DNA of 64,000 nucleotides from Minisyncoccota bacterium (lineage in GTDB: Bacteria; Patescibacteriota; Minisyncoccia; Phycocordibacterales; JABAAK01): positions 460,336-524,335 of the forward strand of contig OY764332.1 of the NCBI GenBank assembly GCA_963668425.1, written 5' to 3'. Below, piece after piece: positions 25,239 through 61,819 of this stretch (the first letter of the stretch is position 1; the number at the start of each line of letters is the position of its first letter). Made by a program: the position numbers and the translations under genes. The notes beneath the pieces are model-generated. The model was not told the origin of the DNA. It searched no databases and was given only the letters and a program-made list of their open reading frames with translations.

Positions 25239-25310
25239 TGCCGGATCGTCTAATTGGTAGGACGACGGGTTTTGATCCCGTTAATCTAGGTTCGAGTCCT
25301 AGTCCGGCAG
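25239..25310 (+). tRNA. tRNA-Gln (anticodon UUG)
   Basis: I folded the cloverleaf by hand: U1-A72 acceptor, anticodon loop TTTTGAT, T-loop TTCGAGT. Confidence 0.8.
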
Positions 25311-25339
25311 CTAACTAGTAAAGAGGGGGTGTTTAGTGA

Positions 25340-25843
25340 ATGGAGCAAAGGCATGTAATGAGTTCACGTGCTAATTCAAATAGACAGATTATTAAGAGAG
25401 GTTATGAAGAAGGCGTACTTTACCTTGTTCATGGTGATGAAATTGGGTTTGTTGATGAAGAGGATGGGGATGTCAGTGAGATTTCTGGGTTTATTGGAAT
25501 GCTTGAGCCGGGGACAACGTATATTCTTGCCACACGGTACGATGAAAAAAATGGCTGGCATACACTTATAACTCATCCGAATGGAATAACACCCCTGAGT
25601 CAAAATACTGGGTTAGGTGGTGATTCGAATGTTTTTATAGAGGATGATAATGATAGAATTGTAGCACTTAGAGAAGCATACAAAGATGAGATCTTGCTTG
25701 ATGTGGATGTGGCAAATGATAATGCAAGGAATAGCTATGCATCTTTGCGGAAATCAACGGAAAGGGATTTGGGGGAGGTTTCGGAAGAAGAAGTTAAAGA
25801 AGAGGTTCGAAAAAATGACTTTGAAGGTGATTTTCCTAGATGA
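25340..25843 (+). CDS. Hypothetical protein, truncated paralog of 51260..51910 (lacks the signal peptide)
   Basis: LEPGTTYILATRYDEKNGWHTLITHPNG and REAYKDEILLDVDVANDNARNSYASL align with the 51260 protein. A strong RBS precedes it. Confidence 0.55.
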   Translation: MEQRHVMSSRANSNRQIIKRGYEEGVLYLVHGDEIGFVDEEDGDVSEISGFIGMLEPGTTYILATRYDEKNGWHTLITHPNGITPLSQNTGLGGDSNVFIEDDNDRIVALREAYKDEILLDVDVANDNARNSYASLRKSTERDLGEVSEEEVKEEVRKNDFEGDFPR

Positions 25844-25919
25844 TTTTTTTGTGATTATGAAAAGATTATGAAAAACACGGCACCAAGTGGTGCCGTGCTG
25901 GTTATTGTCCCCTCATCTT

Positions 25920-26633
25920 TCATTCATAGTGAGGGATAATGAAGGCGAATCTGCCGCAATAGTCCTCAGGGTTAAGGGAATTGAATAATCTGTCTTGGTC
26001 TGTGTTGTTTGTAGTATTTTCTATCAGAGCGTTTGAGTTGAGCCAGAGTCCAATGTTGGTTTCTGGGTGTGGGGATGTGTCATCCCGCACTATACTGAAT
26101 ATCTGTGGTATGCCGTCGGCATACCAATTATTTTCTTCAGTTGCTATAAAGAATCCATGATACACTCCGTAGTTAGGTTGATCAGTAAACTGTAGGCGTA
26201 ACTGTACAGCAACTTCAGGTGGACATGGTGCATAACCAAACTCTTTCCCTTTTTCAAGGATATCTTTGAAGGATACTAATGCATCTTCTTCAAACCCTAA
26301 ATCAAAGAGGGAGAGGATTATTACCGCTACCTCACTCTCTTCCTTTGCGATTGGGAAGTTTGGGTGAGAGAGTGATTGCACTGACTGCTGGTCTACTAGA
26401 AATTTTTCTTCTCTAATCTTTCTTAAAAGATCAATGCCGGTTTTCTGCGTTCCAATAGTTAGCGTGGGAAATGGAACGTTTAAATCCCGATCCCCCTTTT
26501 CCATCTCAGGGCATGTGCCTGTATCTATGTTTTCTGAGCAAGAGGTAGTGAAGAGTAGTCCTGAAAAAACTAAGAAAATCAGGTTTGTTTTTATAAGGAA
26601 TGCAAGATTTTTCATGTCGCCCCCTTCATTCAT
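25920..26633 (-). CDS. Lipoprotein, paralog of 50488..51189
   Basis: Signal peptide plus Cys lipobox. The block CPPEVAVQLRLQFTDQ...DGIPQIFSIVRDDTSPHPETNIGL is shared with the 50488 protein. Confidence 0.6.
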   Translation of the reverse strand: MNEGGDMKNLAFLIKTNLIFLVFSGLLFTTSCSENIDTGTCPEMEKGDRDLNVPFPTLTIGTQKTGIDLLRKIREEKFLVDQQSVQSLSHPNFPIAKEESEVAVIILSLFDLGFEEDALVSFKDILEKGKEFGYAPCPPEVAVQLRLQFTDQPNYGVYHGFFIATEENNWYADGIPQIFSIVRDDTSPHPETNIGLWLNSNALIENTTNNTDQDRLFNSLNPEDYCGRFAFIIPHYE

Positions 26634-32800: not shown

Positions 32801-32877
32801 GGTGTATGCATGATTCTATCTTTTATTATCACACGTTCGGCTTGTTGAATCAAGGTATTTGCTATATTTGCCATCAC
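26830..32877 (-). CDS. Giant (2015 aa) cell-surface protein with multiple Calx-beta-like beta-sandwich domains, six identical 111-aa tandem repeats and a C-terminal fibronectin-III-like domain
   Basis: An N-terminal signal/TM (AIVLALLVAIGLASLF) is followed by Calx-beta-like repeats (APADYTAGPYQVKFTKGEQSKTFTIPTAKDSIDENVEMFEISI). The six 111-aa copies each end ADDDG. The C-terminus (WPTLPKADQYTVRWW...NTAYAVEV) is FN3-like. Confidence 0.8.
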   Translation of the reverse strand: MMANIANTLIQQAERVIIKDRIMHTPRHQHVFNQSKNVFHYAIVLALLVAIGLASLFGPQAPAEAQSVSNPFMIQPSSSLIPDGIGTDDKFRLIFITSTQHTADSTDSNTYNTLVQTAAGNNNAFTNDEVDSNTIANIKIVGSTSTIDARDNTAMWNNNTSTWQDTNDNVPIYWVSGDKVADSYADFYDGSWKPLRQNLPRDESGNRITPDHITVWTGSNDDGTKHNTNPLGASQVLWGAVGLVTGTGINPIGNTNTSNTASNTTKHRLYGITPVFQVEKTGILFDDSRKNLEVGEGDGAKVTLHLTAPAQEDVTITVNTKDKTATAPADYTAGPYQVKFTKGEQSKTFTIPTAKDSIDENVEMFEISIQTNNLPGWLNLLSTEGSSVSIWEKVELTIAPMNSATEVVEGGEARFTITANQSSDIDLEVKYRVTDGPGHDYIDDDKTGLFTATIPAEATTATIKVETRNDGIDQPAATGNGQITVTIDPHYNGVYTLGSANSVNLPIYDSQATLISATPVIGGNPEHLVEGGIYQFNTTLSRELIAPEEITIPFTFGGTATYGTDYKLLCPRFDNLKNMKAVCNNFNGNSPSITFTGGDPTENTDSIADIQMYEFLQVLTDSTAETAPETITITLDVDTTSGVNLHGGAQGTIYSSTIQDPPATSTVQFSKNMFVVNEASGLLEATVTLSAPLGSDLTLPITITEQGATRGTDFLLADNGIVIKAGESTATFSANIPNDDLAEGNEQFTITINANQLPNSPTAITTGSNAAATVLIIDDEPIQVTLDASRKIILEGGEDSIITLTLNRPLQTGEALTVPVTVTGDADQGTDYTLTETAAAGVTYTGVGTANATVSFAPSTATTATLTLNAPDDSTIEADIEAVTVTIGDLSFTKTDTRNPDPVTQGSPVNLYLFDPSNHVQWITLTPQGIDEHQDFYIGEENAGTLQVSLDSAPTAQVTAQVTISTGSSHATISGGPLTFSPTDYTDEAISILGTPDSDTNELDTVIIRFTLSSTDERYNGKTYDKTVQIVDNDTPITIRLTGPPSVNITEGNQIYRIYFTSSRRIPFRIPTQTLSLGFTITAGNFIIIPQNSDPEPADHDIEWKVEQMQIGENRGYIEIETKDDNKVEQDAAATATLSLIGNLPGITIDPAHNILAIKHIDDDSLHITINKQKQYLFISRKRDFPLTIEPKTKSGSDSEVLTMEADAQKITFPDLDALQYIVVRTPNGFATTRPDLYQVEPTIPRIILLSHNDPVPSIPEIRIRTDGGITEGSSATFTLSASPVPTADLPVTVSITASGNYGITAGSQTVTIPTSGTATLTIPANGDQVDEPDGSVTVTVTAGSGYTISSTQGTATTTIADDDGVTPSIPEIRIRTDGGITEGSSATFTLSASPVPTADLPVTVSITASGNYGITAGSQTVTIPTSGTATLTIPANGDQVDEPDGSVTVTVTAGSGYTISSTQGTATTTIADDDGVTPSIPEIRIRTDGGITEGSSATFTLSASPVPTADLPVTVSITASGNYGITAGSQTVTIPTSGTATLTIPANGDQVDEPDGSVTVTVTAGSGYTISSTQGTATTTIADDDGVTPSIPEIRIRTDGGITEGSSATFTLSASPVPTADLPVTVSITASGNYGITAGSQTVTIPTSGTATLTIPANGDQVDEPDGSVTVTVTAGSGYTISSTQGTATTTIADDDGVTPSIPEIRIRTDGGITEGSSATFTLSASPVPTADLPVTVSITASGNYGITAGSQTVTIPTSGTATLTIPANGDQVDEPDGSVTVTVTAGSGYTISSTQGTATTTIADDDGVTPSIPEIRIRTDGGITEGSSATFTLSASPVPTADLPVTVSITASGNYGITAGSQTVTIPTSGTATLTIPANGDQVDEPDGSVTVTVTAGSGYTISSTQGTATTTIADDDDTIAKEKISLSVISITSDSATATWPTLPKADQYTVRWWKTGAQSNTSQYQFVSTNYKKIDGLRSNTAYAVEVIPRVDNVWQQEQKSIPVPFTTLAQ
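27115..29112. repeat. Six perfect tandem copies of a 333-bp coding repeat inside the giant surface-protein gene
   Basis: Five identical 65-aa shadow ORFs on the plus strand sit exactly 333 nt apart. The protein repeat VTPSIPEIRIRTDGG...TTTIADDDG is identical six times. Confidence 0.9.
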
Positions 32878-40058: not shown

Positions 40059-43000
40059 ATGGTGTACGATCCTGAAAGAATAGTAAGCATTGGGGAGCTA
40101 GAAAAACGAGGGAAGACCGTGCGTTTTGGTATTAAGGAAAAGGATAGGTCTCGGCATATTTATGTTATCGGACAGACGGGTACTGGTAAGTCAACATTGT
40201 TGGAGATGTTGGCGATGCAGGATATACGAAACGGTACCGGTTTGATTTTTATGGATCCGCATGGGCAGTCAGTTGAAGCATTGTTGCAATATGTAACACG
40301 GGACTATTTGGATAACATTATCTACTTTGCGCCACATCATCAGGAAAGACCGATTGGGTTGAATATTATGGAAGATATTGGCTATGATAAGCGGCATTTG
40401 GTGGTAAGTAGTTTGATGGCGTCGTTTGAGAAAATTTGGGGAGCTGGAACCTGGTCAGATAGGATGGCATACATTTTGCAGAATACGTTACTGGCGTTGA
40501 TTGAGTATCCTGGTACCACCTTGCTTGATGTTGGACGAATGTATAGTAGTAAAGGTTTTCGGGAGAAAGTTGTTGCTAACTTAAAAGACCCACAGGTGCG
40601 GAAGTACTGGGTTGAGGAATTTGCAAACTATACCGAGCGATACGCTCAGGAGGCAACACCATCTATTCAGAACAAGCTCGGTCAGTTTACCTCTAATCCG
40701 TTGATGCGAAATATTATTGGACAGAAGGACTCTGCGTTTAATTTTCGGGAGATTATGGATGAGGGGAAAATACTATTGGTGAATTTATCAAAAGGGCAGA
40801 TTGGTGAGAATAATGCACGAATGCTTGGTGTGTTGTTCACGACGAAGATTTATCTTGCCGCACTATCGCGAAGTAATATGACGAAGGCAGAGTTAGAGGC
40901 GGCGAATCCTTGTAATTTCTTTGTTGATGAGTTTCAGTCATTTGCGAATTCTTCTTTTTCTGATATTTTGTCTGAGGCGCGAAAATATAAGTTAAATCTG
41001 GTGATGGCGCATCAGTATTTAGGACAGTTATACTCTGATGACTCTGGTGGCGGAGATGTGATTCGGGATGCGGTGTTTGGTAATGTGGGAACCTTTGTAT
41101 CATTTCGGGTTGGTCCGGTTGATGCGGAGATTATTTCTAAACAATTTGCGCCGGATATTGCGGAGGAGGACTTGGTTGCGTTGCCACGGTATCATATATA
41201 CCTTACGTTGAATATTGATGGTGCCGGCTCTACACCATTTTCTGCAAGGACTTTTTATGAGCCAGCGCCGGAGAGTATGTCATTGGAGGATGAGGTTGTG
41301 CAGCGAACAATGGATGTTTACGGTGCTGATCGAGCGGCTGTAGAGAAATTGGTTGAGGATAATTTGGCGGAGGATGTTCAATCTAATGAAGTAGCAAAGA
41401 AATCTGGTGGACAGAAGGGTGGTGGGAAGAAATCTGGCTGGCAGCAGGGTGGTGGTGGACAAAGATCTGGCGGACAGAGGTCTGGTGGACAGAAGGGTGC
41501 ACATGGTGGTGACCGGAGAGATCTAGAGACCCATACCCCATTGAAGGGGTTGGTACAACAGATGATGCAGCGACCTGGGCAACAGAAGGAGGAGAAATCA
41601 AAAGAGCGAGGAGATGATGGTGAGGGATTTGTAAAAAAGAGGGTAGATGCGTCTGATCAGCCAAGGATGGATAGGTCAAAAGAACGTGTTGGGCAGAGGA
41701 GTGAAAGTAGGAGAATCCTGAAGAAGAAGGTGGATGTGTTGGAGCAGCGAGGAGCGAATGAGCCAAAGGAGCGTGTTGAGCAGAAGGGTGAGGTTGGAAA
41801 GGTTGTGAAGAAGGATGTTGCTATGTCAGTGACTGATATGCCGAAGAAAGGGCAGAGTGTCGTTGAGAGGTCAGAAGATGTTCGTGTTGTGGATACCCCA
41901 AAAGTACAGCACTCTTTTCCTGCAGAAGAACAGCGTAGGAGGCGAGGACGAGGGTCGGAAGGCGCTGCATCGGAGCGTGAACAGAATGACGACAGAAAAC
42001 GGTCTGCATCAAGTGGCAAGGTTCGTCGTGAAGAATCTGTTGCCATGCCGAGTCCTAATCAACAACGTACTCAGCGTAGGTCAAATCGTAGAGATGTTAA
42101 GCAGGATGATGGTGGTGGACAAAGATCTGGCGGACAGAGGTCTGGTGGACAGAAGGGTGAGGTTGGAAAGGTTGTGAAGAAGGATGTTGCTATGTCAGTG
42201 ACTGATATGCCGAAGAAAGGGCAGAGTGTCGTTGAGAGGTCAGAAGATGTTCGTGTTGTGGATACCCCAAAAGTACAGCACTCTTTTCCTGCAGAAGAAC
42301 AGCGTAGGAGGCGAGGACGAGGGTCGGAAGGCGCTGCATCGGAGCGTGAACAGAATGACGACAGAAAACGGTCTGCATCAAGTGGCAAGGTTCGTCGTGA
42401 AGAATCTGTTGCCATGCCGAGTCCTAATCAACAACGTACTCAGCGTAGGTCAAATCGTAGAGATGTTAAGCAGGATGATGGTGGTGGACAAAGATCTGGC
42501 GGACAGAGGTCTGGTGGACAGAAGGGTGAGGTTGGAAAGGTTGTGAAGAAGGATGTTGCTATGTCAGTGACTGATATGCCGAAGAAAGGGCAGAGTGTCG
42601 TTGAGAGGTCAGAAGATGTTCGTGTTGTGGATACCCCAAAAGTACAGCACTCTTTTCCTGCAGAAGAACAGCGTAGGAGGCGAGGACGAGGGTCGGAAGG
42701 CGCTGCATCGGAGCGTGAACAGAATGACGACAGAAAACGGTCTGCATCAAGTGGCAAGGTTCGTCGTGAAGAATCTGTTGCCATGCCGAGTCCTAATCAA
42801 CAACGTACTCAGCGTAGGTCAAATCGTAGAGATGTTAAGCAGGATGGAGAGGGTTCTGTACGGAATAGAGGGCAGCGACAGAAGAGGCAAAAGAACCATG
42901 GTGGAGGTGGTGGTCAGAGACATGCTCCCATAGATAAATTTGTTGTACGTACAGAGAAAGAGAAGGGTGGTTCTACAAGCAAGCAAGGAGTTTCTGCTGA

Positions 43001-43379
43001 CGTTAAGCAGGACGAAGCACGCGTAGAACAGCAGGTGAAAGAGAGGCGACCGCAACTTGCTGACGCTCTGCGACGACCAAATGGTGTTGTTGTTGGCACT
43101 GTTTCGCGAAGTATGGCGACACAGCAGTCAGTGACTGAACAACGTACTGAGCAGCCGGATGTCTCAGGTGGGCAGCAAGGCGCACAGGATGCAAAGCAGG
43201 AGCATTCTGGGAAACAGCAGCAGCGTGGGCATGCTGGTGGATTGGGTGATTTGGTAAAGACGACAAAGGCAAGCGGATTGCGAAAAGATTTGAAAGTTGC
43301 ACCGAAAAAAGAGAAGCATGCGCCGCCGATCAGATATGAGGAAGGGTGGTTTTCGATTGGGGATCTTGCCCGGAAGTAG
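40059..43379 (+). CDS. TraD/TraG/VirD4-like (type IV coupling protein family) P-loop ATPase without a TM anchor, with a long basic low-complexity C-terminal tail containing tandem repeats
   Basis: Walker A IGQTGTGKST, the MDPHG motif and Walker B FFVDEFQSF. The C-terminal 550 aa are rich in GGQRSGGQ and RR/KK. Confidence 0.6.
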   Translation: MVYDPERIVSIGELEKRGKTVRFGIKEKDRSRHIYVIGQTGTGKSTLLEMLAMQDIRNGTGLIFMDPHGQSVEALLQYVTRDYLDNIIYFAPHHQERPIGLNIMEDIGYDKRHLVVSSLMASFEKIWGAGTWSDRMAYILQNTLLALIEYPGTTLLDVGRMYSSKGFREKVVANLKDPQVRKYWVEEFANYTERYAQEATPSIQNKLGQFTSNPLMRNIIGQKDSAFNFREIMDEGKILLVNLSKGQIGENNARMLGVLFTTKIYLAALSRSNMTKAELEAANPCNFFVDEFQSFANSSFSDILSEARKYKLNLVMAHQYLGQLYSDDSGGGDVIRDAVFGNVGTFVSFRVGPVDAEIISKQFAPDIAEEDLVALPRYHIYLTLNIDGAGSTPFSARTFYEPAPESMSLEDEVVQRTMDVYGADRAAVEKLVEDNLAEDVQSNEVAKKSGGQKGGGKKSGWQQGGGGQRSGGQRSGGQKGAHGGDRRDLETHTPLKGLVQQMMQRPGQQKEEKSKERGDDGEGFVKKRVDASDQPRMDRSKERVGQRSESRRILKKKVDVLEQRGANEPKERVEQKGEVGKVVKKDVAMSVTDMPKKGQSVVERSEDVRVVDTPKVQHSFPAEEQRRRRGRGSEGAASEREQNDDRKRSASSGKVRREESVAMPSPNQQRTQRRSNRRDVKQDDGGGQRSGGQRSGGQKGEVGKVVKKDVAMSVTDMPKKGQSVVERSEDVRVVDTPKVQHSFPAEEQRRRRGRGSEGAASEREQNDDRKRSASSGKVRREESVAMPSPNQQRTQRRSNRRDVKQDDGGGQRSGGQRSGGQKGEVGKVVKKDVAMSVTDMPKKGQSVVERSEDVRVVDTPKVQHSFPAEEQRRRRGRGSEGAASEREQNDDRKRSASSGKVRREESVAMPSPNQQRTQRRSNRRDVKQDGEGSVRNRGQRQKRQKNHGGGGGQRHAPIDKFVVRTEKEKGGSTSKQGVSADVKQDEARVEQQVKERRPQLADALRRPNGVVVGTVSRSMATQQSVTEQRTEQPDVSGGQQGAQDAKQEHSGKQQQRGHAGGLGDLVKTTKASGLRKDLKVAPKKEKHAPPIRYEEGWFSIGDLARK
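41789..42850. repeat. About 2.9 perfect tandem copies of a 369-bp coding repeat in the coupling-protein-like gene tail
   Basis: Identical 106-aa shadow ORFs lie at 41857, 42226 and 42595, with period 369. A partial extra copy sits near 41455. Confidence 0.85.
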
Positions 43380-49163: not shown

Positions 49164-49249
49164 CATCTTCATTTTCTTGGAGTGTCCTTGATATTCATAT
49201 ATTTGCCTTGCAAAAGCAAGGCAAATTATTTTTTTGACCAAATTTGTTG

Positions 49250-49343
49250 TATGACCGCCGTGAAACGGCGGAAACTGACCGCTGTATGTTGCATGCACTG
49301 ACGTGCTGTTTTGTGTGACCCCACGGGGAATCGAACCCCCTGT
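49250..49343. repeat. Tandem duplicate of the tRNA-Glu 3-prime 24 nt plus about 70 bp of its downstream flank
   Basis: 49250..49343 is nearly identical to 49370..49460. The two copies are separated by a 28-bp hairpin (GTTTTTGgctctgaCAAAAAC). Confidence 0.8.
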
Positions 49344-49435
49344 TTTTGGCTCTGACAAAAACCTGGTTATATGACCGCCGTGAAACGGCGGAAACTGACC
49401 GCTGTATGTTGCATGCACTGACGTGCTGTTTTGTG

Positions 49436-49507
49436 TGACCCCACGGGGAATCGAACCCCGGTTTCCGCCGTGAAAGGGCGGCGTCCTAGCCGCTAGACGA
49501 TGGGGCC
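49436..49507 (-). tRNA. tRNA-Glu (anticodon UUC)
   Basis: Reverse complement folds GGCCCCA...CTTTCAC anticodon loop...TTCGATT T-loop...TGGGGTC-A. Confidence 0.8.
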
Positions 49508-49571: not shown

Positions 49572-50180
49572 GTGAAGATGTATCAGGATGTTGCTCTTAC
49601 TGATAGGCATCGTCGGTTGCTTTTGCGGAAGATGGGTGCCTCTGTAGAGTTGACAGGAGTTATCAATTCGGTTTTTGAGGCGTTGGTAGCGCATGCTTGT
49701 CCACGGTTTTCAGCTTTTGCAGCATTGACTGCTGCGATATCTGCTTTTAGGAAGAAGGATTTTGGTATCTTTCCTGATTATGAGGCGGTTTGGTTGCCGA
49801 CTGTTGTTCTTGATGATATTCATTGTGTACGATACCGTACTGATGTTATGCAGACCGTGTACGAAGCGATAGTGCCGGTGTGCATATCCGAATTGACCAG
49901 GCATTGTTTGCAAGCAGCGTTGCGAATACACGATCTGCAGATTTTGTTTTTATGTAATGGGAGTTTTTTAATCGGTGAGATAAAACGTATTCGTGCTTTT
50001 GGTGAGTCGTTTGAGCATGTTCGCCGTGAAAAAAGGTACTCAACGGCTGATACGAATAGGTGTCCGATACAGATGGTTGGTAGCTTTGACCGCATGCCGG
50101 ATCCCACTATTGACTTATGCCCAGAAGGAGCTGAGAAGCGATTATTTCATGATATTGAAAAAATGCTTCGTGTGCTTTAG
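49572..50180 (+). CDS. Hypothetical cytoplasmic protein
   Basis: 202 aa, RBS GGAGGG. A 17-bp perfect palindrome lies upstream at about 49512..49548. Confidence 0.45.
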   Translation: MKMYQDVALTDRHRRLLLRKMGASVELTGVINSVFEALVAHACPRFSAFAALTAAISAFRKKDFGIFPDYEAVWLPTVVLDDIHCVRYRTDVMQTVYEAIVPVCISELTRHCLQAALRIHDLQILFLCNGSFLIGEIKRIRAFGESFEHVRREKRYSTADTNRCPIQMVGSFDRMPDPTIDLCPEGAEKRLFHDIEKMLRVL

Positions 50181-50303
50181 GAGGTACTTGTTCTTTCTGG
50201 TTTGCGAGCTCGCTAACATGCATATTTTTGAGTGAAAAGATTAATTTTTTTCTTCTAATTTTTGAGGCGCGTTGGGATTACTTGTCCTGATGCGCCTTTT
50301 TTG

Positions 50304-50349
50304 TGTGCGAATGGTAGGACTCGAACCTACGACCTCTCCATTATCAGTG
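50304..50349. repeat. Direct repeat of the 3-prime 45 nt of tRNA-Ile; left boundary of a 2.3-kb islet
   Basis: tgtgcgaatggtaggactcgaacctacgacctctccattatcagtg is identical to the 3-prime half of the tRNA at 52601..52673. The upstream T-run is also shared. Confidence 0.8.
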
Positions 50350-50487
50350 AGTTCATTTGAACTATGTATAGGGATTGAGAGATTAGAAATAAAAGGTGGA
50401 TGAAGTGCGCAAGGTGTCTTTTTGCTTTAAATATGATTACTTGTATACTGTGAGTAGGGTACAAAAAGGTAAGTAAGGAGGAGTACA

Positions 50488-51189
50488 GTGATGTCTCATT
50501 TTTTTTCATTAAAGGTATTCTTGTTTCCGATAATTTTGTTTTGCTTGATCTTTGTTTTTGCATGCTCTCAAGATAATGAGGATGTGTGTATTATCACTCT
50601 TTCAGGTGGAGAACGATCAATTGCACTCCATTTTCCCTCTATAACCTTGAGGGCTTTCGACAATGGTGCCGATTTACTTCAAGATCTGGAAGAAGGAAGA
50701 TTTCTGGTAGATAAGAAATCGACACAAACCCTCTCTCATCCTGATTTTCCAACCTCAAAAGAAGAAACCAGAGTGAGTGTGGTTGTTCGTTCACTTCTTA
50801 GCATGGGGTTTCCTGCGAATGAGTTGATTTCTTACAAGGAAATTCTTGAAAAAGGAAAAGATCTTGGCCTTATGGTCTGTCCCCCTGATCTTGCTGCACA
50901 GCTCCGTTTACAGTTTACTGATCAGTCATCTCACGGATGGCTTGGTGATTTTCTCATTGCAACCGAGGAAATCAACTTGCACACCGATGGCATCCCAGGA
51001 ATATTTGCTGTTGTGCGGGATGATTCATCTCCTCATCCAGAGACCGGTATTGGATTACACCTCGTCTTCTATAATTTAGTGAGGGGAGGTCAAAATCAAT
51101 TGTTTGATCCTCGTAACTCCGAGAAAAATATCTATTGCGGGAAATTTGCTTTTATTGCTCCTGTAGATAATTTGATTTTTGAAGAGTAA
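50488..51189 (+). CDS. Lipoprotein, paralog of 25920..26633
   Basis: Signal plus Cys lipobox (LIFVFACSQ). Shares VCPPDLAAQLRLQFTDQ...DGIPGIFAVVRDDSSPHPETGIGL with the paralog. RBS AAGGAGG. Confidence 0.6.
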   Translation: MMSHFFSLKVFLFPIILFCLIFVFACSQDNEDVCIITLSGGERSIALHFPSITLRAFDNGADLLQDLEEGRFLVDKKSTQTLSHPDFPTSKEETRVSVVVRSLLSMGFPANELISYKEILEKGKDLGLMVCPPDLAAQLRLQFTDQSSHGWLGDFLIATEEINLHTDGIPGIFAVVRDDSSPHPETGIGLHLVFYNLVRGGQNQLFDPRNSEKNIYCGKFAFIAPVDNLIFEE

Positions 51190-51259
51190 TAAGCTTTGCG
51201 CGGCACTGATTTTGTGCCGCGCTTTTTATTCCCACTGTAATTTTTTACATGACACAATG

Positions 51260-51910
51260 TTATTTTGATGCCTGCAGAGATTTGAAGCTGTTTCTTGCAT
51301 TGCCTTTCGCCACATCCACTTTTAGTAATACCTCATTTTTATATGCCTTCTTTAATTGTGCAACTCTTTCATCATTGTTTGCTATACCCTTTAGATTCTC
51401 CAGACTTGATCCGGCATCTTGGCTAAGAACTTTCTTTCCATTTGGATGGGACATAAGTGTATGCCAATCTTTATCCTCGTAGTATCGTGTAGAAAGAAGG
51501 TAGGTTTCCCCGGGTTCAAGCAATCCTTCAGTATTGCCATCAGCGGGAGATAGTATGTCGCCATTGTGCACGACATGGAGTACGCCATTTTTATACCCGC
51601 CTAATTGATTTATGGTTACAGTATTCTGTAAGCTTCCTTTGACATTTCTTATTACTGCTACTTCAAATTGTGTATAAGGAACATCTATGGTGCTGAAAGT
51701 GCCACTTTGTCGAATCACCTTTCCAACAAAAATATTATGTGATGTGCCAACTAATATTTTATCATCTGTAAAATCAGCAACCCACTTAGGGTGTATTTCT
51801 TTTACAATAGGAAGCTTAATTGCATTTGTATGCAATCCAATGCTAATGCATAAAACAAAAAGCAATATGCTTCCAATTGCTATATGTATGGTGGTTAATT
51901 TTTTAGTCAT
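51260..51910 (-). CDS. Secreted or membrane-anchored hypothetical protein, full-length paralog of 25340..25843
   Basis: N-terminal TM/signal; shares LEPGETYLLSTRYYEDKDWHTLMSHPNG and KKAYKNEVLLKVDVAKGNARNSFKSL with the 25340 protein. Confidence 0.55.
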   Translation of the reverse strand: MTKKLTTIHIAIGSILLFVLCISIGLHTNAIKLPIVKEIHPKWVADFTDDKILVGTSHNIFVGKVIRQSGTFSTIDVPYTQFEVAVIRNVKGSLQNTVTINQLGGYKNGVLHVVHNGDILSPADGNTEGLLEPGETYLLSTRYYEDKDWHTLMSHPNGKKVLSQDAGSSLENLKGIANNDERVAQLKKAYKNEVLLKVDVAKGNARNSFKSLQASK

Positions 51911-51950
51911 AGTTGATTAAATGTTATTGAAATAATTTAAAGTAATGTGA

Positions 51951-52529
51951 TCAATCCCATAGGGTATTATTGTTATAGTCATATTTATCAATAGGCCCCA
52001 AAGAGGTTTTCAAGTTTACAGTATCATGCATAATATTGCCAGAATGGGAATGATCTAATCCTAGTGCGTGACCAAGTTCATGTAGAATAACATTTTTTAT
52101 TGTGGCATCTTGCCATGCCCAGGGAAGGATACTAAGGTCATCGTCAAGATAATGTTTATTCAGATACAGTTCATCACTACCGATCCAATCGTAATCATAT
52201 AGCCCCGCCCAATCTGCATCAGCGCTGTATACATCCCTTACAGTCAGATCCTGATAAGTCCAAAAAGTATCGGGAGCTATATTAATTTCTCCCAGCGCAT
52301 TCCATGTTGAAATCCCATAGCTCCATTGAGTTGAATATTTTGTTGATCCTCCCCACCGTATTTCATAGTCATCTACCGCGTTATTATCATTAAAATGTCC
52401 ATCAGTTGAGCCAGCGAAAACAAGAGTAACACCTAGTAAAGATGTGATTACCATTACCATTGTCAATACAAAAAGTATTGAGATTTTATTTTTCATAAAT
52501 GTAATTATATTATTAAGTAAATAACCCAC
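51951..52529 (-). CDS. Secreted matrixin-like (metzincin) zinc metalloprotease
   Basis: HELGHALGLDHSHSGNIMH is the HExxHxxGxxH metzincin signature plus a Met-turn. An N-terminal signal/TM is present. Confidence 0.7.
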   Translation of the reverse strand: MGYLLNNIITFMKNKISILFVLTMVMVITSLLGVTLVFAGSTDGHFNDNNAVDDYEIRWGGSTKYSTQWSYGISTWNALGEINIAPDTFWTYQDLTVRDVYSADADWAGLYDYDWIGSDELYLNKHYLDDDLSILPWAWQDATIKNVILHELGHALGLDHSHSGNIMHDTVNLKTSLGPIDKYDYNNNTLWD

Positions 52530-52600
52530 ACTTTCAGTTATTGTTAGTATACAGTCTTTTGAAGCGTATTAGAGATATTTGTTCCAGTGTGCTTTTTATG

Positions 52601-52673
52601 TGCGAATGGTAGGACTCGAACCTACGACCTCTCCATTATCAGTGGAGTGCTCTAACCACCTGAGCTACATTCG
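52601..52673 (-). tRNA. tRNA-Ile (anticodon GAU)
   Basis: Reverse complement folds GCGAATG...CTGATAA anticodon loop...TTCGAGT...CATTCGC-A. Confidence 0.8.
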
Positions 52674-52769
52674 CATATTGTGTATTATAGCGTAAAAGGT
52701 TTGTCTGTGTGGTTGGTAACACTACCTTGTTTTTTGGGCGTGTATGTTCTGTATAGTAGAATAGTACTA

Positions 52770-53150
52770 ATGGTTTCTGTTTTATATACACTGCGGGTTT
52801 TGTGTGTACTGAGTGTTTTTATGGTATGTGTTTTTTCTACTTGTTTTGTGTATGCCACTGAGTCAGTGCTTAGCATTACGGAGATTATGTATGATGCTGA
52901 GGGAGGGGATGATGGAAAAGAATTTGTAGAAGTTCTAAATACTGGGTCAGAAGAAATTGATATGACGACAGTGAAGTTTTTTGAACGAAATGATCGCCCT
53001 GATCGCCCCGGCGGATCTCTTGCGTCAGGTCAGGGAGGTGTTGTTTGCGACCGGGGGAGGTCGCGATTATTGTGGCAAAACCGGATCTCTTTTTGCAGCA
53101 TTATTCGTTTGATGGGGTTGTGCTTGATACCAGAAATTTTGCACTATTGA
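52770..53150 (+). CDS. N-terminal part (signal peptide plus start of a lamin-tail domain) of a surface protein interrupted by a frameshift near 53005..53045
   Basis: ITEIMYDAEGGDDGKEFVEVLNTGSEEIDM is an LTD core. The frame then runs into nonsense, and the LTD continues in another frame. Confidence 0.45.
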   Translation: MVSVLYTLRVLCVLSVFMVCVFSTCFVYATESVLSITEIMYDAEGGDDGKEFVEVLNTGSEEIDMTTVKFFERNDRPDRPGGSLASGQGGVVCDRGRSRLLWQNRISFCSIIRLMGLCLIPEILHY

Positions 53151-54256
53151 ATACGGGTGCGACTGTTTCGTTAGAGGTTGCCGGTCGCCTGCTACACAGT
53201 GTCGCATATACCACGGAGGACGGCGCGAAGGGTGATGGGAATTCATTACATATTAGGCAGGATGCTGTTATTTTTGCAGGCGAGCCGAATCCTGGGGTGG
53301 TGCAGGGTGTTGTTACGGATGACTCTGGTGCCAGTGAGCGTGATGAGGAGATTGGTGCTGTAGATACTCAGGTAGCGTTTGACACGCAGCAGAGAAATAC
53401 TGAAGAAGCAGAATCCTCTGTTTTTGTGCCCGATGCACAGCATTTGTCTGTCGGGGGAACAGAACCTCCTATTTTTGTATCTGATCCTTCGGTTGTTTTT
53501 TCTGCGTCAACAACTCGGTTTTCAGTTGTGCGTCAGGGGAATGGGCAGGAAGAGATGTATGGGTTGTGGAACTTCGGAGATGGTGACTACACCTATGGCA
53601 CTGTTGTGGAGCATGTGTATTTACACCCTGGTGCCTATATTGTTGTGTTTCAGGCGTTAGATGAGGATGGGTCTGAGGGCTTCGCATTACAAAAAGAGAT
53701 TCGTGTGTTGTTCCCGCAGGTCAGCATTGAGAGAATTGATGATGCATTTGTGCGGTTGCATAATCGTCATCCTTTTGTGCTTGATGTGTCAGGTTGGCGT
53801 ATTGAGTCACAGGGTACTGTTTTTGATTTTCCTATGAGGTCATTGGTGCCGAAGCAGAATAGTATTGTTGTTCCGTTTGCATTTGATGAGAGGCAGGATG
53901 TGTTCTTTGTGACTGCTGGAGGAGGGCAATTCAGCGGGACGTATGTTTCTCCTGATGTCAATAAAGGGCAGGAGGTGGATGTTGCTAAAGCGTTGGTAGC
54001 AGAGAGCCCTGTGTCAGCGAGACGACAAGTTTCCACAAGAAAGGATGTCGTGATTGAGCAGGAGCGAGTCAGTGGCGTGACTCATACTGATGTTTTTGTT
54101 GCGGATGTTGTTAATGATCAGGAAGAAAAACATACTGGTGTTGCTGTGCGGATGATTGCGGTGTGGGTTGTGTTGTTGATTGGCATTATGATTGTTGCAT
54201 TAGTGCCATTTATTTTTACGCGACGGGAAAAAGCAAAACGTTTTGATCATACGTAG
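53045..54256 (+). CDS. Continuation of the LTD-PKD-LTD surface protein (remainder of first LTD, a PKD domain, a second LTD-like domain, C-terminal TM anchor); frameshifted relative to 52770..53150
   Basis: Contains LRPGEVAIIVAKPDLF (LTD), WNFGDGDYTYGTVVEHVYLHPGAYIVVFQALDEDG (PKD) and a C-terminal VAVRMIAVWVVLLIGIMIVALVPFIF. Confidence 0.55.
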   Translation: MRPGEVAIIVAKPDLFLQHYSFDGVVLDTRNFALLNTGATVSLEVAGRLLHSVAYTTEDGAKGDGNSLHIRQDAVIFAGEPNPGVVQGVVTDDSGASERDEEIGAVDTQVAFDTQQRNTEEAESSVFVPDAQHLSVGGTEPPIFVSDPSVVFSASTTRFSVVRQGNGQEEMYGLWNFGDGDYTYGTVVEHVYLHPGAYIVVFQALDEDGSEGFALQKEIRVLFPQVSIERIDDAFVRLHNRHPFVLDVSGWRIESQGTVFDFPMRSLVPKQNSIVVPFAFDERQDVFFVTAGGGQFSGTYVSPDVNKGQEVDVAKALVAESPVSARRQVSTRKDVVIEQERVSGVTHTDVFVADVVNDQEEKHTGVAVRMIAVWVVLLIGIMIVALVPFIFTRREKAKRFDHT

Positions 54257-54405: not shown

Positions 54406-54630
54406 ATGAAACGAAAACGACGAACCACAAAGAAGTCCGCCGCGAAGAAGACAGTGAAGAAGCGACGAAGCACAAAAAAGTCAGCTTCTAAGAAGACAAC
54501 GAAGAAGCGACGAAGCACAAAAAAGTCAGCTTCTAAGAAGACAACGAAGAAGCGACGAAGCACAAAGAGGCGGTCAGCAAAGAAGGTGACTAAAAAGATG
54601 ACAAAGCGTCGAAGTCGCCGTCGCAGGTAA
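54406..54630 (+). CDS. Lysine/arginine-rich repetitive basic protein (histone H1-like / nucleoid-associated candidate)
   Basis: 74 aa, more than 50% K/R, with KKRRSTKKSASKKTT repeats encoded by two perfect 45-bp DNA repeats. Confidence 0.45.
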   Translation: MKRKRRTTKKSAAKKTVKKRRSTKKSASKKTTKKRRSTKKSASKKTTKKRRSTKRRSAKKVTKKMTKRRSRRRR

Positions 54631-54798: not shown

Positions 54799-55404
54799 AT
54801 GGATAGAGAGCATTTTGAACGGACGTTGGTTATTATTAAGCCGGATGCGGTGCAACGAGTATTAGTTGGTGAGATTATTCGGCGTTTTGAGCGAGTTGGA
54901 TTAAAGATAGTCGCGATGAAAATGGTGCGGGTGGATGCTGTCACCGTTGAAAAGCATTATTCACTTGATCCGGATTGGAGGCGAAAAGCCGGTGAGAAGC
55001 AGTTGCGCAATGAAGTGGGAGATGTGGGTGTTGTTAGTGAAGGCGATGCAGTTGCGGCAGGTGAACTTATTTTAGGACACTTAAAGCGATTTATGACTGC
55101 TGGTCCAGTAGTGCCGTTGGTGTTGGAGGGGGCATATGCGGTTTCGTTGACACGAAAGTTAGTTGGCGGTACTGAGCCGTTTTCATCTGATGTTGGTACT
55201 ATTCGTGGAGATTTTGTATTGGATTCGTACGCGTTGGCAAATGATGCAAATCGCTCTATTCGAAATGCGATACATGCGTCTTCAAGTGTTGAGGAAGCCG
55301 AAAAAGAAGTTGCGTTGTGGTTTCAACCGGAAGAAATGCTTGTGTATGAGACCGCGTATGAACGTATATTATACGATGTAAATTTTGATAATGTTATTGA
55401 ATAG
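54799..55404 (+). CDS. ndk: Nucleoside diphosphate kinase with an internal insertion of about 50 aa
   Basis: ERTLVIIKPDAVQR...GLKIVAMK and NAIHASSSVEEAEKEVALWF (active-site His region). About 200 aa versus the typical 140. Confidence 0.7.
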   Translation: MDREHFERTLVIIKPDAVQRVLVGEIIRRFERVGLKIVAMKMVRVDAVTVEKHYSLDPDWRRKAGEKQLRNEVGDVGVVSEGDAVAAGELILGHLKRFMTAGPVVPLVLEGAYAVSLTRKLVGGTEPFSSDVGTIRGDFVLDSYALANDANRSIRNAIHASSSVEEAEKEVALWFQPEEMLVYETAYERILYDVNFDNVIE

Positions 55405-55795: not shown

Positions 55796-56143
55796 CTATG
55801 CTTTAGTAGATTCGACGATGCGGTCAAATAGTATTTTCCTTTTTTGTGCAATTTCTGACAACATTTTTCGGTTGAGTAGTATACCTTTTTTCTTTAATGT
55901 ACCCATAAATGTGCTATATGAAAGGTTGTGGGGCTTTAGTGCCGCACTGATGCGGATATTCCAGAGCCGTCTAAAATCCCCTTTTTTCTTTTTGCGATGT
56001 GCGAATGCATGATTGCCAGCGTGAAGCCATGCTTCGCGTGCTTGCCTCTCCTTGGTGGAACGACCCCAGCGATACCCTTTTACTTTTTTTAGTAGGGATT
56101 TTCTGCTTTTTAGGGAAATTGTACCTCGTTTTACGCGAACCAT
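55796..56143 (-). CDS. rplT: 50S ribosomal protein L20
   Basis: MVRVKRGTISLKSRKSLLKKVKGYRWGRS...FRRLWNIRISAA matches L20. Confidence 0.85.
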   Translation of the reverse strand: MVRVKRGTISLKSRKSLLKKVKGYRWGRSTKERQAREAWLHAGNHAFAHRKKKKGDFRRLWNIRISAALKPHNLSYSTFMGTLKKKGILLNRKMLSEIAQKRKILFDRIVESTKA

Positions 56144-56163: not shown

Positions 56164-56349
56164 CTATGTAGAGAGTGTATATCGTTGTTGCATTTTGGTT
56201 GACATCTGTACTGACCTTTGTCGCTTTTTTGCTAGTTTTTTAGAACGAGAGTATTTCGCATTGAAATGACCGCGACCTTTACCACTGGCAAGAAGCACAC
56301 CTTTTTTTGTAACACGGATGCGTGAACGAGCTGCTTTGTTTGATTTCAT
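56164..56349 (-). CDS. rpmI: 50S ribosomal protein L35
   Basis: 61-aa basic protein between infC and rplT (canonical operon position); GKGRGHF is L35-like. Confidence 0.65.
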   Translation of the reverse strand: MKSNKAARSRIRVTKKGVLLASGKGRGHFNAKYSRSKKLAKKRQRSVQMSTKMQQRYTLST

Positions 56350-57911: not shown

Positions 57912-58457
57912 ATGGAAGAGATACAGGAAGAAAAACAGCCAAAATGGTATGTGGTGAAAGTTCACTCAGGTTTTGAGCAGGTGGTGAGAATGAGTATTAT
58001 GCAGACCATAGAGTCGCTTGGGCTTGCAGATAAGATATTTGAAGTGGTAATACCGACTGAGAAACAGGTACGTATTAAGGGAGGTAAGCGAACGGAGAAA
58101 GAGGAGCGGATATATCCTGGTTATATTTTGGTATACATGATTATTGATGATCAGACGTGGTATGCGATTAACAATGTTGAGTATTCCTCAGGGTTTCTTG
58201 GTTCTCGGGCGCATGCTGAGTCATTATCGCAGGAGGAGGTTGATGTTATTAAGGAGCGAATGCGTGGTGATACGGTGCGGCATGAAACTGACCTTAAGGT
58301 GGGAGATGCTGTTAAAATTATTGATGGCCCATTTTCGGATCTGGGTGGCAAGGTTAGTGAGGTGGATATTGATAAAGGTCAAGCGACGGTGCTTATTCCT
58401 ATGTTTGGTAGAGAGACCCCAGTCAAACTGGATCTTTTCCAAATTCGCAGTGTGTAG
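57912..58457 (+). CDS. nusG: Transcription termination/antitermination factor NusG
   Basis: NGN domain (WYVVKVHSGFEQ) and KOW domain (VGDAVKIIDGPFSDLGGKV). Confidence 0.85.
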   Translation: MEEIQEEKQPKWYVVKVHSGFEQVVRMSIMQTIESLGLADKIFEVVIPTEKQVRIKGGKRTEKEERIYPGYILVYMIIDDQTWYAINNVEYSSGFLGSRAHAESLSQEEVDVIKERMRGDTVRHETDLKVGDAVKIIDGPFSDLGGKVSEVDIDKGQATVLIPMFGRETPVKLDLFQIRSV

Positions 58458-60639: not shown

Positions 60640-60715
60640 CTCGCAACGCCACCGTTTCAGGAACAAGATCTGATGGACCCGCCTCTTTGCTCTATGCCTG
60701 TCGTGTTATTTTTTG
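60640..60715. repeat. Degenerate duplicate of the tRNA-Trp 3-prime portion plus about 37 bp of downstream flank
   Basis: ccaccgtttcaggaacaagatctgatggacccgcctctttgctctatgcctgtcgtgttatttttt matches aaccgccgtttcaggttcaagtcctgatggacccgcctctttgctctatgcctgccgtgttattttt. Confidence 0.7.
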
Positions 60716-61610
60716 TCGTTTGTATGTAGTGTCAAGGTCTTGATGGAGTTGACCTACTTGGTGTTCTTGGTACCAATGGGCTTCTGGGTAGCGGCGGAGC
60801 CAATTTTCTTGTCTTTTGGCGTAAGCGAATATAGCATTGAGGAGGTTTGCCTTTGTTTCTTCAGGCGAGATATGTTGTGTAAGCATGGCTGCTATGTGTC
60901 TGCATTCTAATCCCATGCGAGAAAACCATACTTCTTCCACGCCTTGCTTGAGCAATGTTTTGATCTCTTCGGCCATTGTGTCAAATCGAATGTCCAATCG
61001 TTTTGCTATGCGTTCTCGTAGGTGTGGTCTGCTGTGTTTGATGCCGATCATTATGTAGTTGTACCGTTTCATTCTTTTTTGCATTGGGAATACACCGAGT
61101 TCTCGTATGATTTCAAGTGCGCGGATAAGTCGTCTGGGATTTTGTATATCTATCCTGTCGTAGGCATCGTGATCTTTTTTTTTGAGTTCTTGTTGCAGTT
61201 CAGTCAACTCTTTTTGCTCCATTGTTTTTCTGTAGGCAGGATTTGTCGGTACCTTTGCAGTTGTACCACTGAAGAGTAGGGCATCAATATAGAAACCAGA
61301 GCCACCGGCGATAATCGGTAGGCGTGCGCGGCTGTGTATTGCTTTTATGTGTGGCGTTGCCTCGTCGGCAAACTGGTGTGCGCTGTACTCTTTGCCTGGG
61401 TTGATGATGTCTAGCATATGGTGTGGGACGTCGCACATCTCTGATTTGGTGATTTTTCCTGTTGTCGCATCTAAGTGACGGTATACCTGTCGTGAATCGG
61501 CAGAGATGACCTCGCCGTTGTATCGTCGTGCTAGGTCAACTGCGAGATCGCTTTTGCCACTGGCAGTTGTGCCTACGATGACGAGGAGAGGTGGGTGAGA
61601 TTGCTCCATA
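60692..61610 (-). CDS. miaA: tRNA dimethylallyltransferase MiaA
   Basis: P-loop VIVGTTASGKSDLA and the MiaA core. The real start is the ATG at 61610. The 68-aa extension in the ORF track reads through tRNA-Leu sequence. Confidence 0.8.
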
Positions 61611-61674
61611 GTGCCGAAGGAGGGACTTGAACCCTCACTCCCGAAGGAACGCGATTTTGAGTCGCGCGCGTCTG
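61608..61674. repeat. Partial duplicate of tRNA-Leu(CAA): 62 nt of its 3-prime portion including the complete anticodon arm, plus CATAG. It abuts the miaA start codon
   Basis: Identical to 61733..61799 of the intact tRNA region. The duplicated CATAG supplies the miaA ATG. Confidence 0.8.
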
Positions 61675-61737
61675 CCCGTGCCGTCAATCTTTGATTGGCG
61701 CTGACTATCAGACGCCACTGTGGCGGAATTATCATAG

Positions 61738-61819
61738 TGCCGAAGGAGGGACTTGAACCCTCACTCCCGAAGGAACGCGATTTTGAGTCGCGCGCGTCTG
61801 CCAATTCCGCCACTTCGGC
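61738..61819 (-). tRNA. tRNA-Leu (anticodon CAA), long variable arm
   Basis: Reverse complement folds GCCGAAG...CTCAAAA anticodon loop...variable arm...TTCAAGT...CTTCGGC-A. Confidence 0.75.

Follow-up and report, generated by a model that had tools for sequence, protein, structure and literature searches.

The window analysed here is a stretch of 64,000 nucleotides (64 kb) of contig OY764332.1, in which three genes lie between an intact tRNA-Ile(GAU) gene and a displaced copy of the 3' part of that gene. They encode a secreted matrixin-like metzincin, a membrane-anchored partner with a predicted NTR/TIMP-type fold and a convergent lipoprotein, and they occupy an islet of about 2.24 kb at 50350-52592, to which one copy of the repeat is added. 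The flanking genes are typical of the candidate phyla radiation (CPR), namely an isoleucyl-tRNA synthetase (IleRS) with an inserted histidine-phosphatase domain, RecO, Ndk, L20/L35, IF3, NusG and the 23S and 5S rRNAs, and the nearest species representatives by IleRS are metagenome-assembled genomes (MAGs) of Candidatus Kaiserbacteria/Paceibacterota with 77-78% identity. The host belongs to the Paceibacterota within the CPR, is Kaiserbacteria-like and has a genome of about 0.7 Mb. The islet and its borders show the following features, given with their positions in the window:

50244..50297, no strand assigned: host flank of the displaced fragment, counterpart of 52539-52592 (alignment)
50298..50349, no strand assigned: distal repeat copy, the displaced tRNA-Ile 3' fragment on the attR side, intergenic (repeat search, alignment)
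50491..51189, plus strand: lipoprotein of 232 residues with the lipobox ...FVFAC (Cys25) and a strong GGAGG before its start
51198..51222, plus strand: G+C-rich hairpin with a T-run, at the point where the lipoprotein and partner genes converge (pattern prediction)
51260..51910, minus strand: membrane-anchored, predicted NTR/TIMP-fold (Tim-like) partner of 216 residues (model, Foldseek)
51951..52496, minus strand: secreted matrixin-like metzincin of 181 residues (PF00413, motifs)
52509..52537, minus strand: promoter-like site, the only one on this strand upstream of the metzincin (weak consensus match only)
52539..52592, no strand assigned: degenerate continuation of the tRNA-side repeat copy, matching 50244-50297 at 42 of 55 positions (about 76%)
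52593..52644, no strand assigned: proximal repeat copy on the attL side, the regenerated target (repeat search, alignment)
52601..52674, minus strand: intact tRNA-Ile(GAU) (ARAGORN; Infernal, 75.8 bits)

The direct repeat found by repeat search is 52 nt long, with 51 of the 52 positions identical, and its copies are 2295 nt apart from start to start. The proximal copy begins in the tRNA 2 nt ahead of the anticodon loop, runs to the 3' end of the gene and takes in 8 trailing nucleotides; the 5' 30 nt of the intact tRNA are host-derived and the 3' 44 nt fall within this copy. An exact run of 46 nt (50304-50349, equal to 52599-52644) comprises this 44-nt part of the tRNA and 2 further nucleotides, and the number of exact 46-mer repeats expected by chance in 64 kb is, by simple arithmetic, about 1e-19. 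Beyond this run, the two copies have a T-run in common (50298-50302 and 52593-52597), and the sole mismatch of the 52-mer is a G at 50303 against an A at 52598. At the distal copy, Infernal also reports a sub-threshold tRNA match (50314-50364). The fragment, which corresponds to the 3' end, follows the tRNA downstream with its orientation unchanged and falls between genes, with no overlap of a conserved coding sequence. An earlier note on this DNA, made from the sequence alone, had described a tRNA-Ile at 52601 with a copy of its 3' end as a direct repeat, a shared T-run and a geometry of the attL/attR type. Each of these points is confirmed by the position, side and orientation of the repeat, the end of the tRNA being refined to 52674 and the repeat to 52 nt.

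The 2243 nt between the repeats have a G+C content of 0.374 and a GC skew of 0.002, where the background averages 0.451 and 0.254. None of 574 same-sized windows lies below either value (z = -3.2 and -3.1, respectively), and the change points of composition coincide with the repeats. At the level of single genes, the skew is 0.03 for the lipoprotein on the plus strand and -0.07 and -0.13 for the two minus-strand genes, all of which deviate from host genes in the same orientation. The segment is therefore compositionally foreign, and the deviation in G+C that the earlier note had proposed to look for is found in skew as well. The GC skew averages 0.25 over the whole 64 kb, rises to 0.4 and stays strongly positive outside the islet, where alone it crosses zero, which places the entire window on one replichore with an unusually strong strand asymmetry.

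Three genes are found between the copies, as first described, with the starts of the lipoprotein and the metzincin now moved to 50491 and 52496, and the remaining non-coding DNA amounts to less than 150 nt per gap. No terminator was predicted either upstream of the metzincin gene, as far as the tRNA, or in the gap that separates it from the partner gene, and no promoter was predicted in that gap. From this arrangement, read-through from the tRNA and an operon formed by the metzincin and partner genes appear plausible. The lack of Shine-Dalgarno sequences at the protease and partner genes was considered as a further sign of foreignness and dropped, since most host genes are also devoid of them. 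These host genes have instead a TATAcT/TATAAT-like hexamer 7-12 nt before the start (e.g., 55796-56143, 56164-56349, 57912-58457, and 54799-55404), a pattern that suggests leaderless mRNAs or mRNAs with very short leaders.

The metzincin begins with a signal peptide (MKNKIS..., as judged from its sequence) and harbors the motif HELGHALGLDH (residues 139-149, 52050-52082) followed by the Met-turn NIMH (M156). It matches the Pfam profile PF00413 (Peptidase_M10) with 30.9 bits (cutoff 24) and an E-value of 3e-7, over profile positions 86-140 only, i.e., the active-site half, in agreement with the HExxHxxGxxH metzincin of the earlier note. Its best match in the PDB is the catalytic domain of MMP-9, which is marginal (E about 0.01), and 71 homologues were found. 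The catalytic profile, the HExxHxxGxxH motif and the Met-turn are shared with the matrixins (peptidase M10A); however, the protein has no Cys at all and so no cysteine-switch prodomain (PRCGxPD), in which it differs from them.

The partner gene starts 40 nt past the metzincin stop codon in the same direction. An AlphaFold model built from 32 homologues (pLDDT 85) predicts an N-terminal transmembrane (TM) helix, an OB barrel and C-terminal helices, and Foldseek independently puts the same set of NTR/TIMP-type structures first. In the searches of structure databases suggested by the earlier note, the two proteins thus point to the MMP-9 catalytic domain, marginally, and to the NTR/TIMP fold. No Pfam family was matched by the partner at E ≤ 0.1 and none in NCBIfam, the TIMP and NTR profiles included. 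It has one Cys in 216 residues, within the TM helix, and this residue is not conserved in an alignment of 33 sequences. On the basis of the model, the partner is TIMP-shaped without being a TIMP.

The association of the two genes is conserved. Among the 40 loci of homologous partner genes with enough upstream sequence, 31 are preceded by a metzincin gene on the same strand at a distance of up to 900 nt, and most of the exceptions are second partner copies in an array; tandem duplications of the metzincin-partner pair also occur. The pairing of the lipoprotein with the secreted protein, as first suggested, has consequently to be replaced by that of the metzincin with the downstream 216-residue protein. 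Related pairs of Firmicutes are recognized by hhalign in Psychrobacillus (99.9%), Paenibacillus (98.9%) and a record named 'Listeria phage LM 4-14-1' (97.9%), and the metzincin matches the protein of the latter record with a BLASTP E-value of 5e-9. In Psychrobacillus (L130/L131, 6481-9107), the pair is divergently flanked by an extracytoplasmic function (ECF) sigma factor and a 212-residue protein. Look-ups by exact sequence returned no record for the three islet proteins or for P0105 and P0106. A tRNA gene lies within about 1 kb of the cassette in six metagenome loci, an enrichment judged too weak to be used, and no duplicate of a tRNA 3' end was found at the other cassette-bearing loci. MMP-like genes have been noted in Parcubacteria by a phylogenetic survey (PMC12587646); no report of a TIMP-fold partner of such proteins in CPR bacteria was found in the literature.

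The lipoprotein has a C-type-lectin/FGE-like fold. A word-indexed search retrieved only the protein itself and an in-genome paralogue, and a full search with a hidden Markov model yielded 910 relatives, of which 13 lie below 1e-30. Of the ten top relatives scanned, nine are without a Pfam match and one (P0111) is fused to an ECF sigma factor, while a further homologue (P0108) is found in an unrelated genome of 6.3 Mb without the cassette. Identity of the lipoprotein domain with the 212-residue, anti-sigma-like protein next to the Psychrobacillus pair was considered and rejected (hhalign probability 0.1%). The paralogue belongs to a second module, which was detected by tblastn of the islet proteins against the window and is made up as follows:

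25239..26633, no strand assigned: second module as a whole
25239..25311, plus strand: tRNA-Gln heading the module
25340..25843, plus strand: N-terminally truncated partner paralogue, 46% identical to residues 105-215
about 25877..25905: hairpin equivalent to that at 51198-51222
25920..26633, minus strand: convergent lipoprotein paralogue, 47% identical

Order and orientation relative to the tRNA are those of the islet at tRNA-Ile. No metzincin is found in the second module, no displaced tRNA-Gln fragment near it scores above the level of shuffled sequences, and the skew of its genes resembles that of host genes in the same orientation. The two modules show no greater similarity to each other than either does to homologues of other organisms, which points to old or independent arrivals and not to a recent internal duplication. 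As the lipoprotein adjoins the cassette in none of 49 other loci, its link to the pair is specific to this lineage, though it is seen there twice.

Two relatives reached via cluster members show the same site in other states. In L136 (ERZ21861969), with 97.1% identity to the window in the islet and 96.7-97.6% in the flanks, the intact lipoprotein gene, the tRNA-Ile and the fragment stand at the same place. A deletion of 1180 bp at an ATTGT microhomology (window 51360-52539) has removed the metzincin and left the last 100 nt of the partner gene, and a second one of 61 nt (window 50328-50388) leaves 30 nt of the displaced fragment. Because a 3' end of the partner gene persists, the difference reflects loss in L136 and not gain in the window. 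L137 (ERZ25069580) is a congener with about 84% nucleotide identity whose IleRS falls in the same 90% cluster. Its tRNA-Glu and tRNA-Ile are only 431 nt apart, with a single copy of the 52-mer, and no homologue or remnant of any islet gene was found there. At the variable position of the 52-mer, the single site of L137 has G, as does the displaced copy of the window (50303), and the tRNA-proximal copy has A. The comparison with related genomes called for by the earlier note thus yields a site with one 52-mer and no islet genes. An IleRS-based scan of genome contigs added no further state of the site, as the synteny of the relatives found breaks at tRNA-Glu and no tRNA-Ile site is visible in them. 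By these alignments, the islet was inserted before the split of the window's lineage from L136 and is now eroding.

No recombinase was detected among the three islet proteins with Pfam, PHROGs or NCBIfam, nor with Pfam among 36 open reading frames (ORFs) of the window, which comprise all those of at least 140 residues except shadow ORFs within a larger gene or rRNA, a few known housekeeping genes and a repeat protein of 2015 residues. The description of the locus as an integrase-free, decayed or minimal cargo islet is borne out in this respect, and also by the visible decay in L136.

Overall, the locus is a genuine, decaying, horizontally acquired tDNA islet in tRNA-Ile(GAU) with mtz-tim-like cargo, probably inserted by an integrase that was lost or acted in trans. 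The incoming DNA brought along its own copy of the 3' part of the tRNA, and recombination inside the tRNA gene rebuilt an intact tRNA next to the cargo while pushing the 3' fragment of the host to the far end. Most likely this recombination was site-specific and catalyzed by a tyrosine integrase at the anticodon loop; the enzyme may since have been lost or may have been supplied in trans, which would make the islet a remnant similar to the cis-mobilizable elements (CIMEs) of other bacteria. The second module at tRNA-Gln and the ties of mtz-tim pairs to mobile elements are counted in favor of this origin.

Several observations weigh against it. No integrase, excisionase or arm-type repeats were found in the window and no cognate element of the same att specificity was seen; moreover, viral contigs contain no homologue of the partner, and phage records none of either the protease or the partner. 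The flank next to tRNA-Ile in L137 has no significant similarity to either flank of the window beyond the 52-mer, so that this 'empty site' is not a base-perfect attB. The lineage also makes repeats containing tRNA 3' ends with no visible element, as in its tRNA-Glu arrays, and the lipoprotein stands beside the cassette in none of 49 other loci. The interaction of protease and partner, their secretion and their co-transcription are putative. Finally, the two repeat copies remain 76% alike (42/55) for about 55 nt past the 52-mer (z = 3.9, 500 shuffles); on the side of the displaced fragment, this stretch is host flank and holds the terminator-like hairpin (50264-50298) of the upstream host gene at 49578-50180. 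As the fragment has kept its non-functional tRNA bases without any change from the tRNA, the flanks must have diverged before the insertion, which suggests that the incoming DNA brought the 3' half of tRNA-Ile together with the downstream flank of a related organism. Such a likeness is not needed by a classical attP; it would fit the tRNA-Ile locus of a related donor and homologous recombination, and it keeps a Campbell-type insertion in play.

The strongest alternative therefore concerns the same insert and a different mechanism: a circularized or anchored fragment of the tRNA-Ile locus of a related Parcubacterium would have entered by homologous (RecA-type, Campbell-like) recombination, duplicating the shared segment on both sides. 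This is possible, though we hold it to be the less likely course. The likeness past the 52-mer is what the downstream flank of the donor's tRNA-Ile would be expected to look like, an integrase was found nowhere that was examined, RecO is encoded 3 kb away, and L137 has a 3.4-kb restriction-modification islet between 79-nt, 99% identical repeats of tRNA-Glu units, likewise with no recombinase. However, the inner boundary of the repeat lies exactly at the anticodon-loop position where integrases cut, a perfectly identical stretch of 46-52 nt is short for RecA-dependent recombination, and the related module at tRNA-Gln suggests a targeting of tRNA genes instead of homology to one locus. We infer from these points that integrase-mediated insertion is likelier than homologous recombination, although not by a wide margin.

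A more far-reaching reading is rather doubtful, namely that integrase-less cassettes move in and out of CPR genomes at tRNA 3' halves or tRNA-derived repeats by means of host recombination, either homologous or through a chromosomal recombinase, in a manner so far undescribed, and that the cargo is a true protease/regulator couple related to the MMP-TIMP/NTR modules of animals. Its hints are the restriction-modification islet at the tRNA-Glu units of L137 and the second copy at tRNA-Gln.

Still more improbable is an ancestral position of the genes beside tRNA-Ile, in which the partial tRNA would be a by-product of the duplication of tRNA 3' ends in this lineage and L137 would have lost the region. 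L136 does have genes at the same place, cargo-free duplicates of 3' fragments occur about 120-128 nt away at tRNA-Glu and also at tRNA-Leu in L001, and the region from RecO to tRNA-Ile is generally variable. But nowhere in the window are G+C content and skew as extreme as here, and both shift at the repeats; L137 has exactly one 52-mer and not a trace of the genes, and for the partner and the lipoprotein, the distance to the paralogues in the same genome is as large as that to proteins of other organisms. In addition, the 44 tRNA bases of the fragment are 100% identical against 76% in the flank, which argues that the flank difference is older than the insertion. The earlier note had considered that close relatives with the genes and no repeat would speak for ancestry; the only close relative with genes, L136, keeps a truncated fragment. 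Virtually no weight can be given to an assembly artefact, i.e., a mis-join at repeated tRNA sequence, as the general risk attached to MAGs is all that speaks for it and the independent assembly of L136, from another sample, reproduces both junctions with strain-specific deletions, the repeat moreover being shorter than a sequencing read.

With the islet taken as an integrated tDNA islet, its cargo would consist of a conserved operon encoding a secreted minimal matrixin-like zinc protease and then a membrane-anchored NTR/TIMP OB-fold protein, completed by the convergent surface lipoprotein with its C-type-lectin-like fold. By analogy with Mtz-Tim of Listeria, the protease may act on its partner, or be controlled by it, at the cell surface. 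It may, for instance, cut the conserved linker close to the anchor, around residues 28-58, and free the TIMP-like domain, and it could remodel either the envelope of the producer or the surface of a partner cell. The host- or cell-surface interaction suggested by the earlier note is a putative role, and Mtz-Tim, the single pair of this type to have been characterized, works on the cell wall of its own producer.

Regarding the neighborhood of the islet, tandem units of about 120-128 nt come after the tRNA-Glu gene in the window (49246-49507) and in L136 (8671-9081), L137 (19083-19561) and L002 (15349-15548). Each unit is composed of the last 24-25 nt of the tRNA and a hairpin resembling its anticodon arm, the copies of the 3' fragment numbering two in the window, three in L136, four in L137 and two in L002. 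A similar extra 3' copy, of tRNA-Leu(TAG), is found in L001. The 3.4-kb segment of L137 (15588-19236) lies between direct repeats of the unit and carries genes for a HindVP-type restriction enzyme, a DNA methylase and a 292-residue protein with no Pfam match; no recombinase could be detected in it, and it has the look of another integrase-less islet of the genus, this one at a repeat derived from a tRNA. Between tRNA-Glu and the displaced fragment, the host gene at 49578-50180 has no family match. It encodes 200 residues and is intact in the window, is split into 157 and 45 residues in L136 (9152-9755) and is reduced to a short N-terminal remnant in L137 (19632-19800), which makes it a decaying gene in a variable region.

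On the other side, next to tRNA-Ile, a surface-protein gene with LTD and PKD domains (52680-54256) is divided into two overlapping ORFs. The split is caused by one nucleotide missing at about 53047 in comparison with L136, where the gene forms a single ORF of 509 residues (516 in L137), and it reflects either a pseudogene or a sequencing error; an insertion of 9 nt (53000-53008) is also present in the window. Farther along (54406-54630), a 74-residue ORF is extremely rich in Lys and Arg and contains three near-identical KKSASKKTTKKRRST repeats, in a register that differs from L136. Internal repeats are also found elsewhere in the window. The ORF of 2015 residues (26830-32877) includes six tandem repeats of 333 nt (27120-29000) with 100% identical DNA, which indicates a very recent expansion, or else a collapse or expansion during assembly. 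Just upstream of IleRS (40059-43379), a gene encodes an ATPase of 1106 residues combining DUF87/HerA with TrwB/TraG-like coupling-protein features, and its internal DNA repeats (about 41853-42880) differ in number from those of both L136 and L137. Finally, ARAGORN calls two adjacent tRNA-Leu(CAA) genes at 61611-61819, of which only 61738-61819 reaches the Rfam gathering score, and the listed MiaA ORF (60692-61813) overruns both calls.

The islet can be compared with the tDNA-integrated islands gathered in Islander (see also Williams, 2002). In common with them it has an intact tRNA, a displaced 3' fragment downstream in the same orientation, foreign cargo and an empty site in a relative. Anticodon-centered islands form class 'A' of that collection, with 2083 of 3919 islands (Hudson, Lau and Williams, 2015; PMC4383910), and the identity block of the islet likewise starts at the anticodon loop. 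With 2295 nt, it lies just above the lower limit of the length range of 2-200 kb used there. However, it has no integrase gene, so that Islander would reject it, and it differs also by the degenerate similarity that runs past the identity block. The CIMEs of Streptococcus are a second point of comparison, as these elements have kept their att sites and lost the genes for integration and transfer (ICEberg 2.0; PMC6323972). At the level of sequence, the islet similarly displays attL/attR-like repeats and cargo only, with no recombinase or transfer genes. It differs in that no cognate integrative and conjugative or integrative and mobilizable element with the same att was found, and in that the attR fragment of L136 is truncated; its mobilization is putative. 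To our knowledge, conjugative elements are essentially undescribed in CPR bacteria.

For the cargo, the Mtz-Tim pair of Listeria monocytogenes (LMRG_00713/00714) comprises a secreted metzincin and, encoded after it, a TIMP-like protein anchored in the membrane (Boichis et al., 2021; PMC8235301). Such mtz-tim pairs are tied to prophages and other mobile elements, the cut that Mtz makes in Tim lies about 50 residues after the N-terminus, and the cell wall of the producer itself is sensitized by the pair (PMC8235301). The islet shares with this system a metzincin with HExxHxxGxxH and Met-turn, a membrane-anchored TIMP-like protein immediately downstream that has no promoter of its own, and a tie to mobile DNA. 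It is likened to LMRG_00713/00714 by description, the homology proper being seen with the pairs of Psychrobacillus, Paenibacillus and the 'Listeria phage LM 4-14-1' record. In contrast to the Listeria pair, the anchor is a TM helix and not a lipobox, no cI/cro-like switch is present and the host is a Parcubacterium. Comparable associations occur in Tannerella forsythia, in whose potempin/KLIKK-peptidase operons a peptidase is co-transcribed with a small membrane-anchored controller (PMC9890683). As in the islet pair, karilysin is MMP-like and PotA is an OB-like beta-barrel, a likeness drawn by description, but there the inhibitor gene lies upstream and not downstream, and potempins are outer-membrane lipoproteins of 98-132 residues. 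With metazoan TIMPs and NTR modules (MEROPS I35; agrin NtA, PCOLCE, and complement C345C), the partner shares, in its model, the NTR-type OB-fold N-domain. It nevertheless has neither the N-terminal Cys1, whose free alpha-amino group chelates zinc, nor disulfides, its sequence identity is 9-14% with no match to the Pfam TIMP and NTR families, and any inhibition is putative.

The islet is thus a known kind of object, a tDNA islet, in an under-explored phylum, and current concepts are not overturned by it. Mobile DNA of the CPR/Patescibacteria is poorly charted, and here an occupied, a decaying and an empty state of one site are documented in the window, L136 and L137, respectively. tRNA genes are insertion hot-spots in genomes of 0.7 Mb even with no visible integrase. 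The range of the little-studied mtz-tim pairs is widened from Firmicutes to Parcubacteria, with a confident, model-based prediction of the NTR/TIMP fold, and episymbiotic bacteria thereby gain a tractable candidate for a system of protease and regulator at the cell surface.

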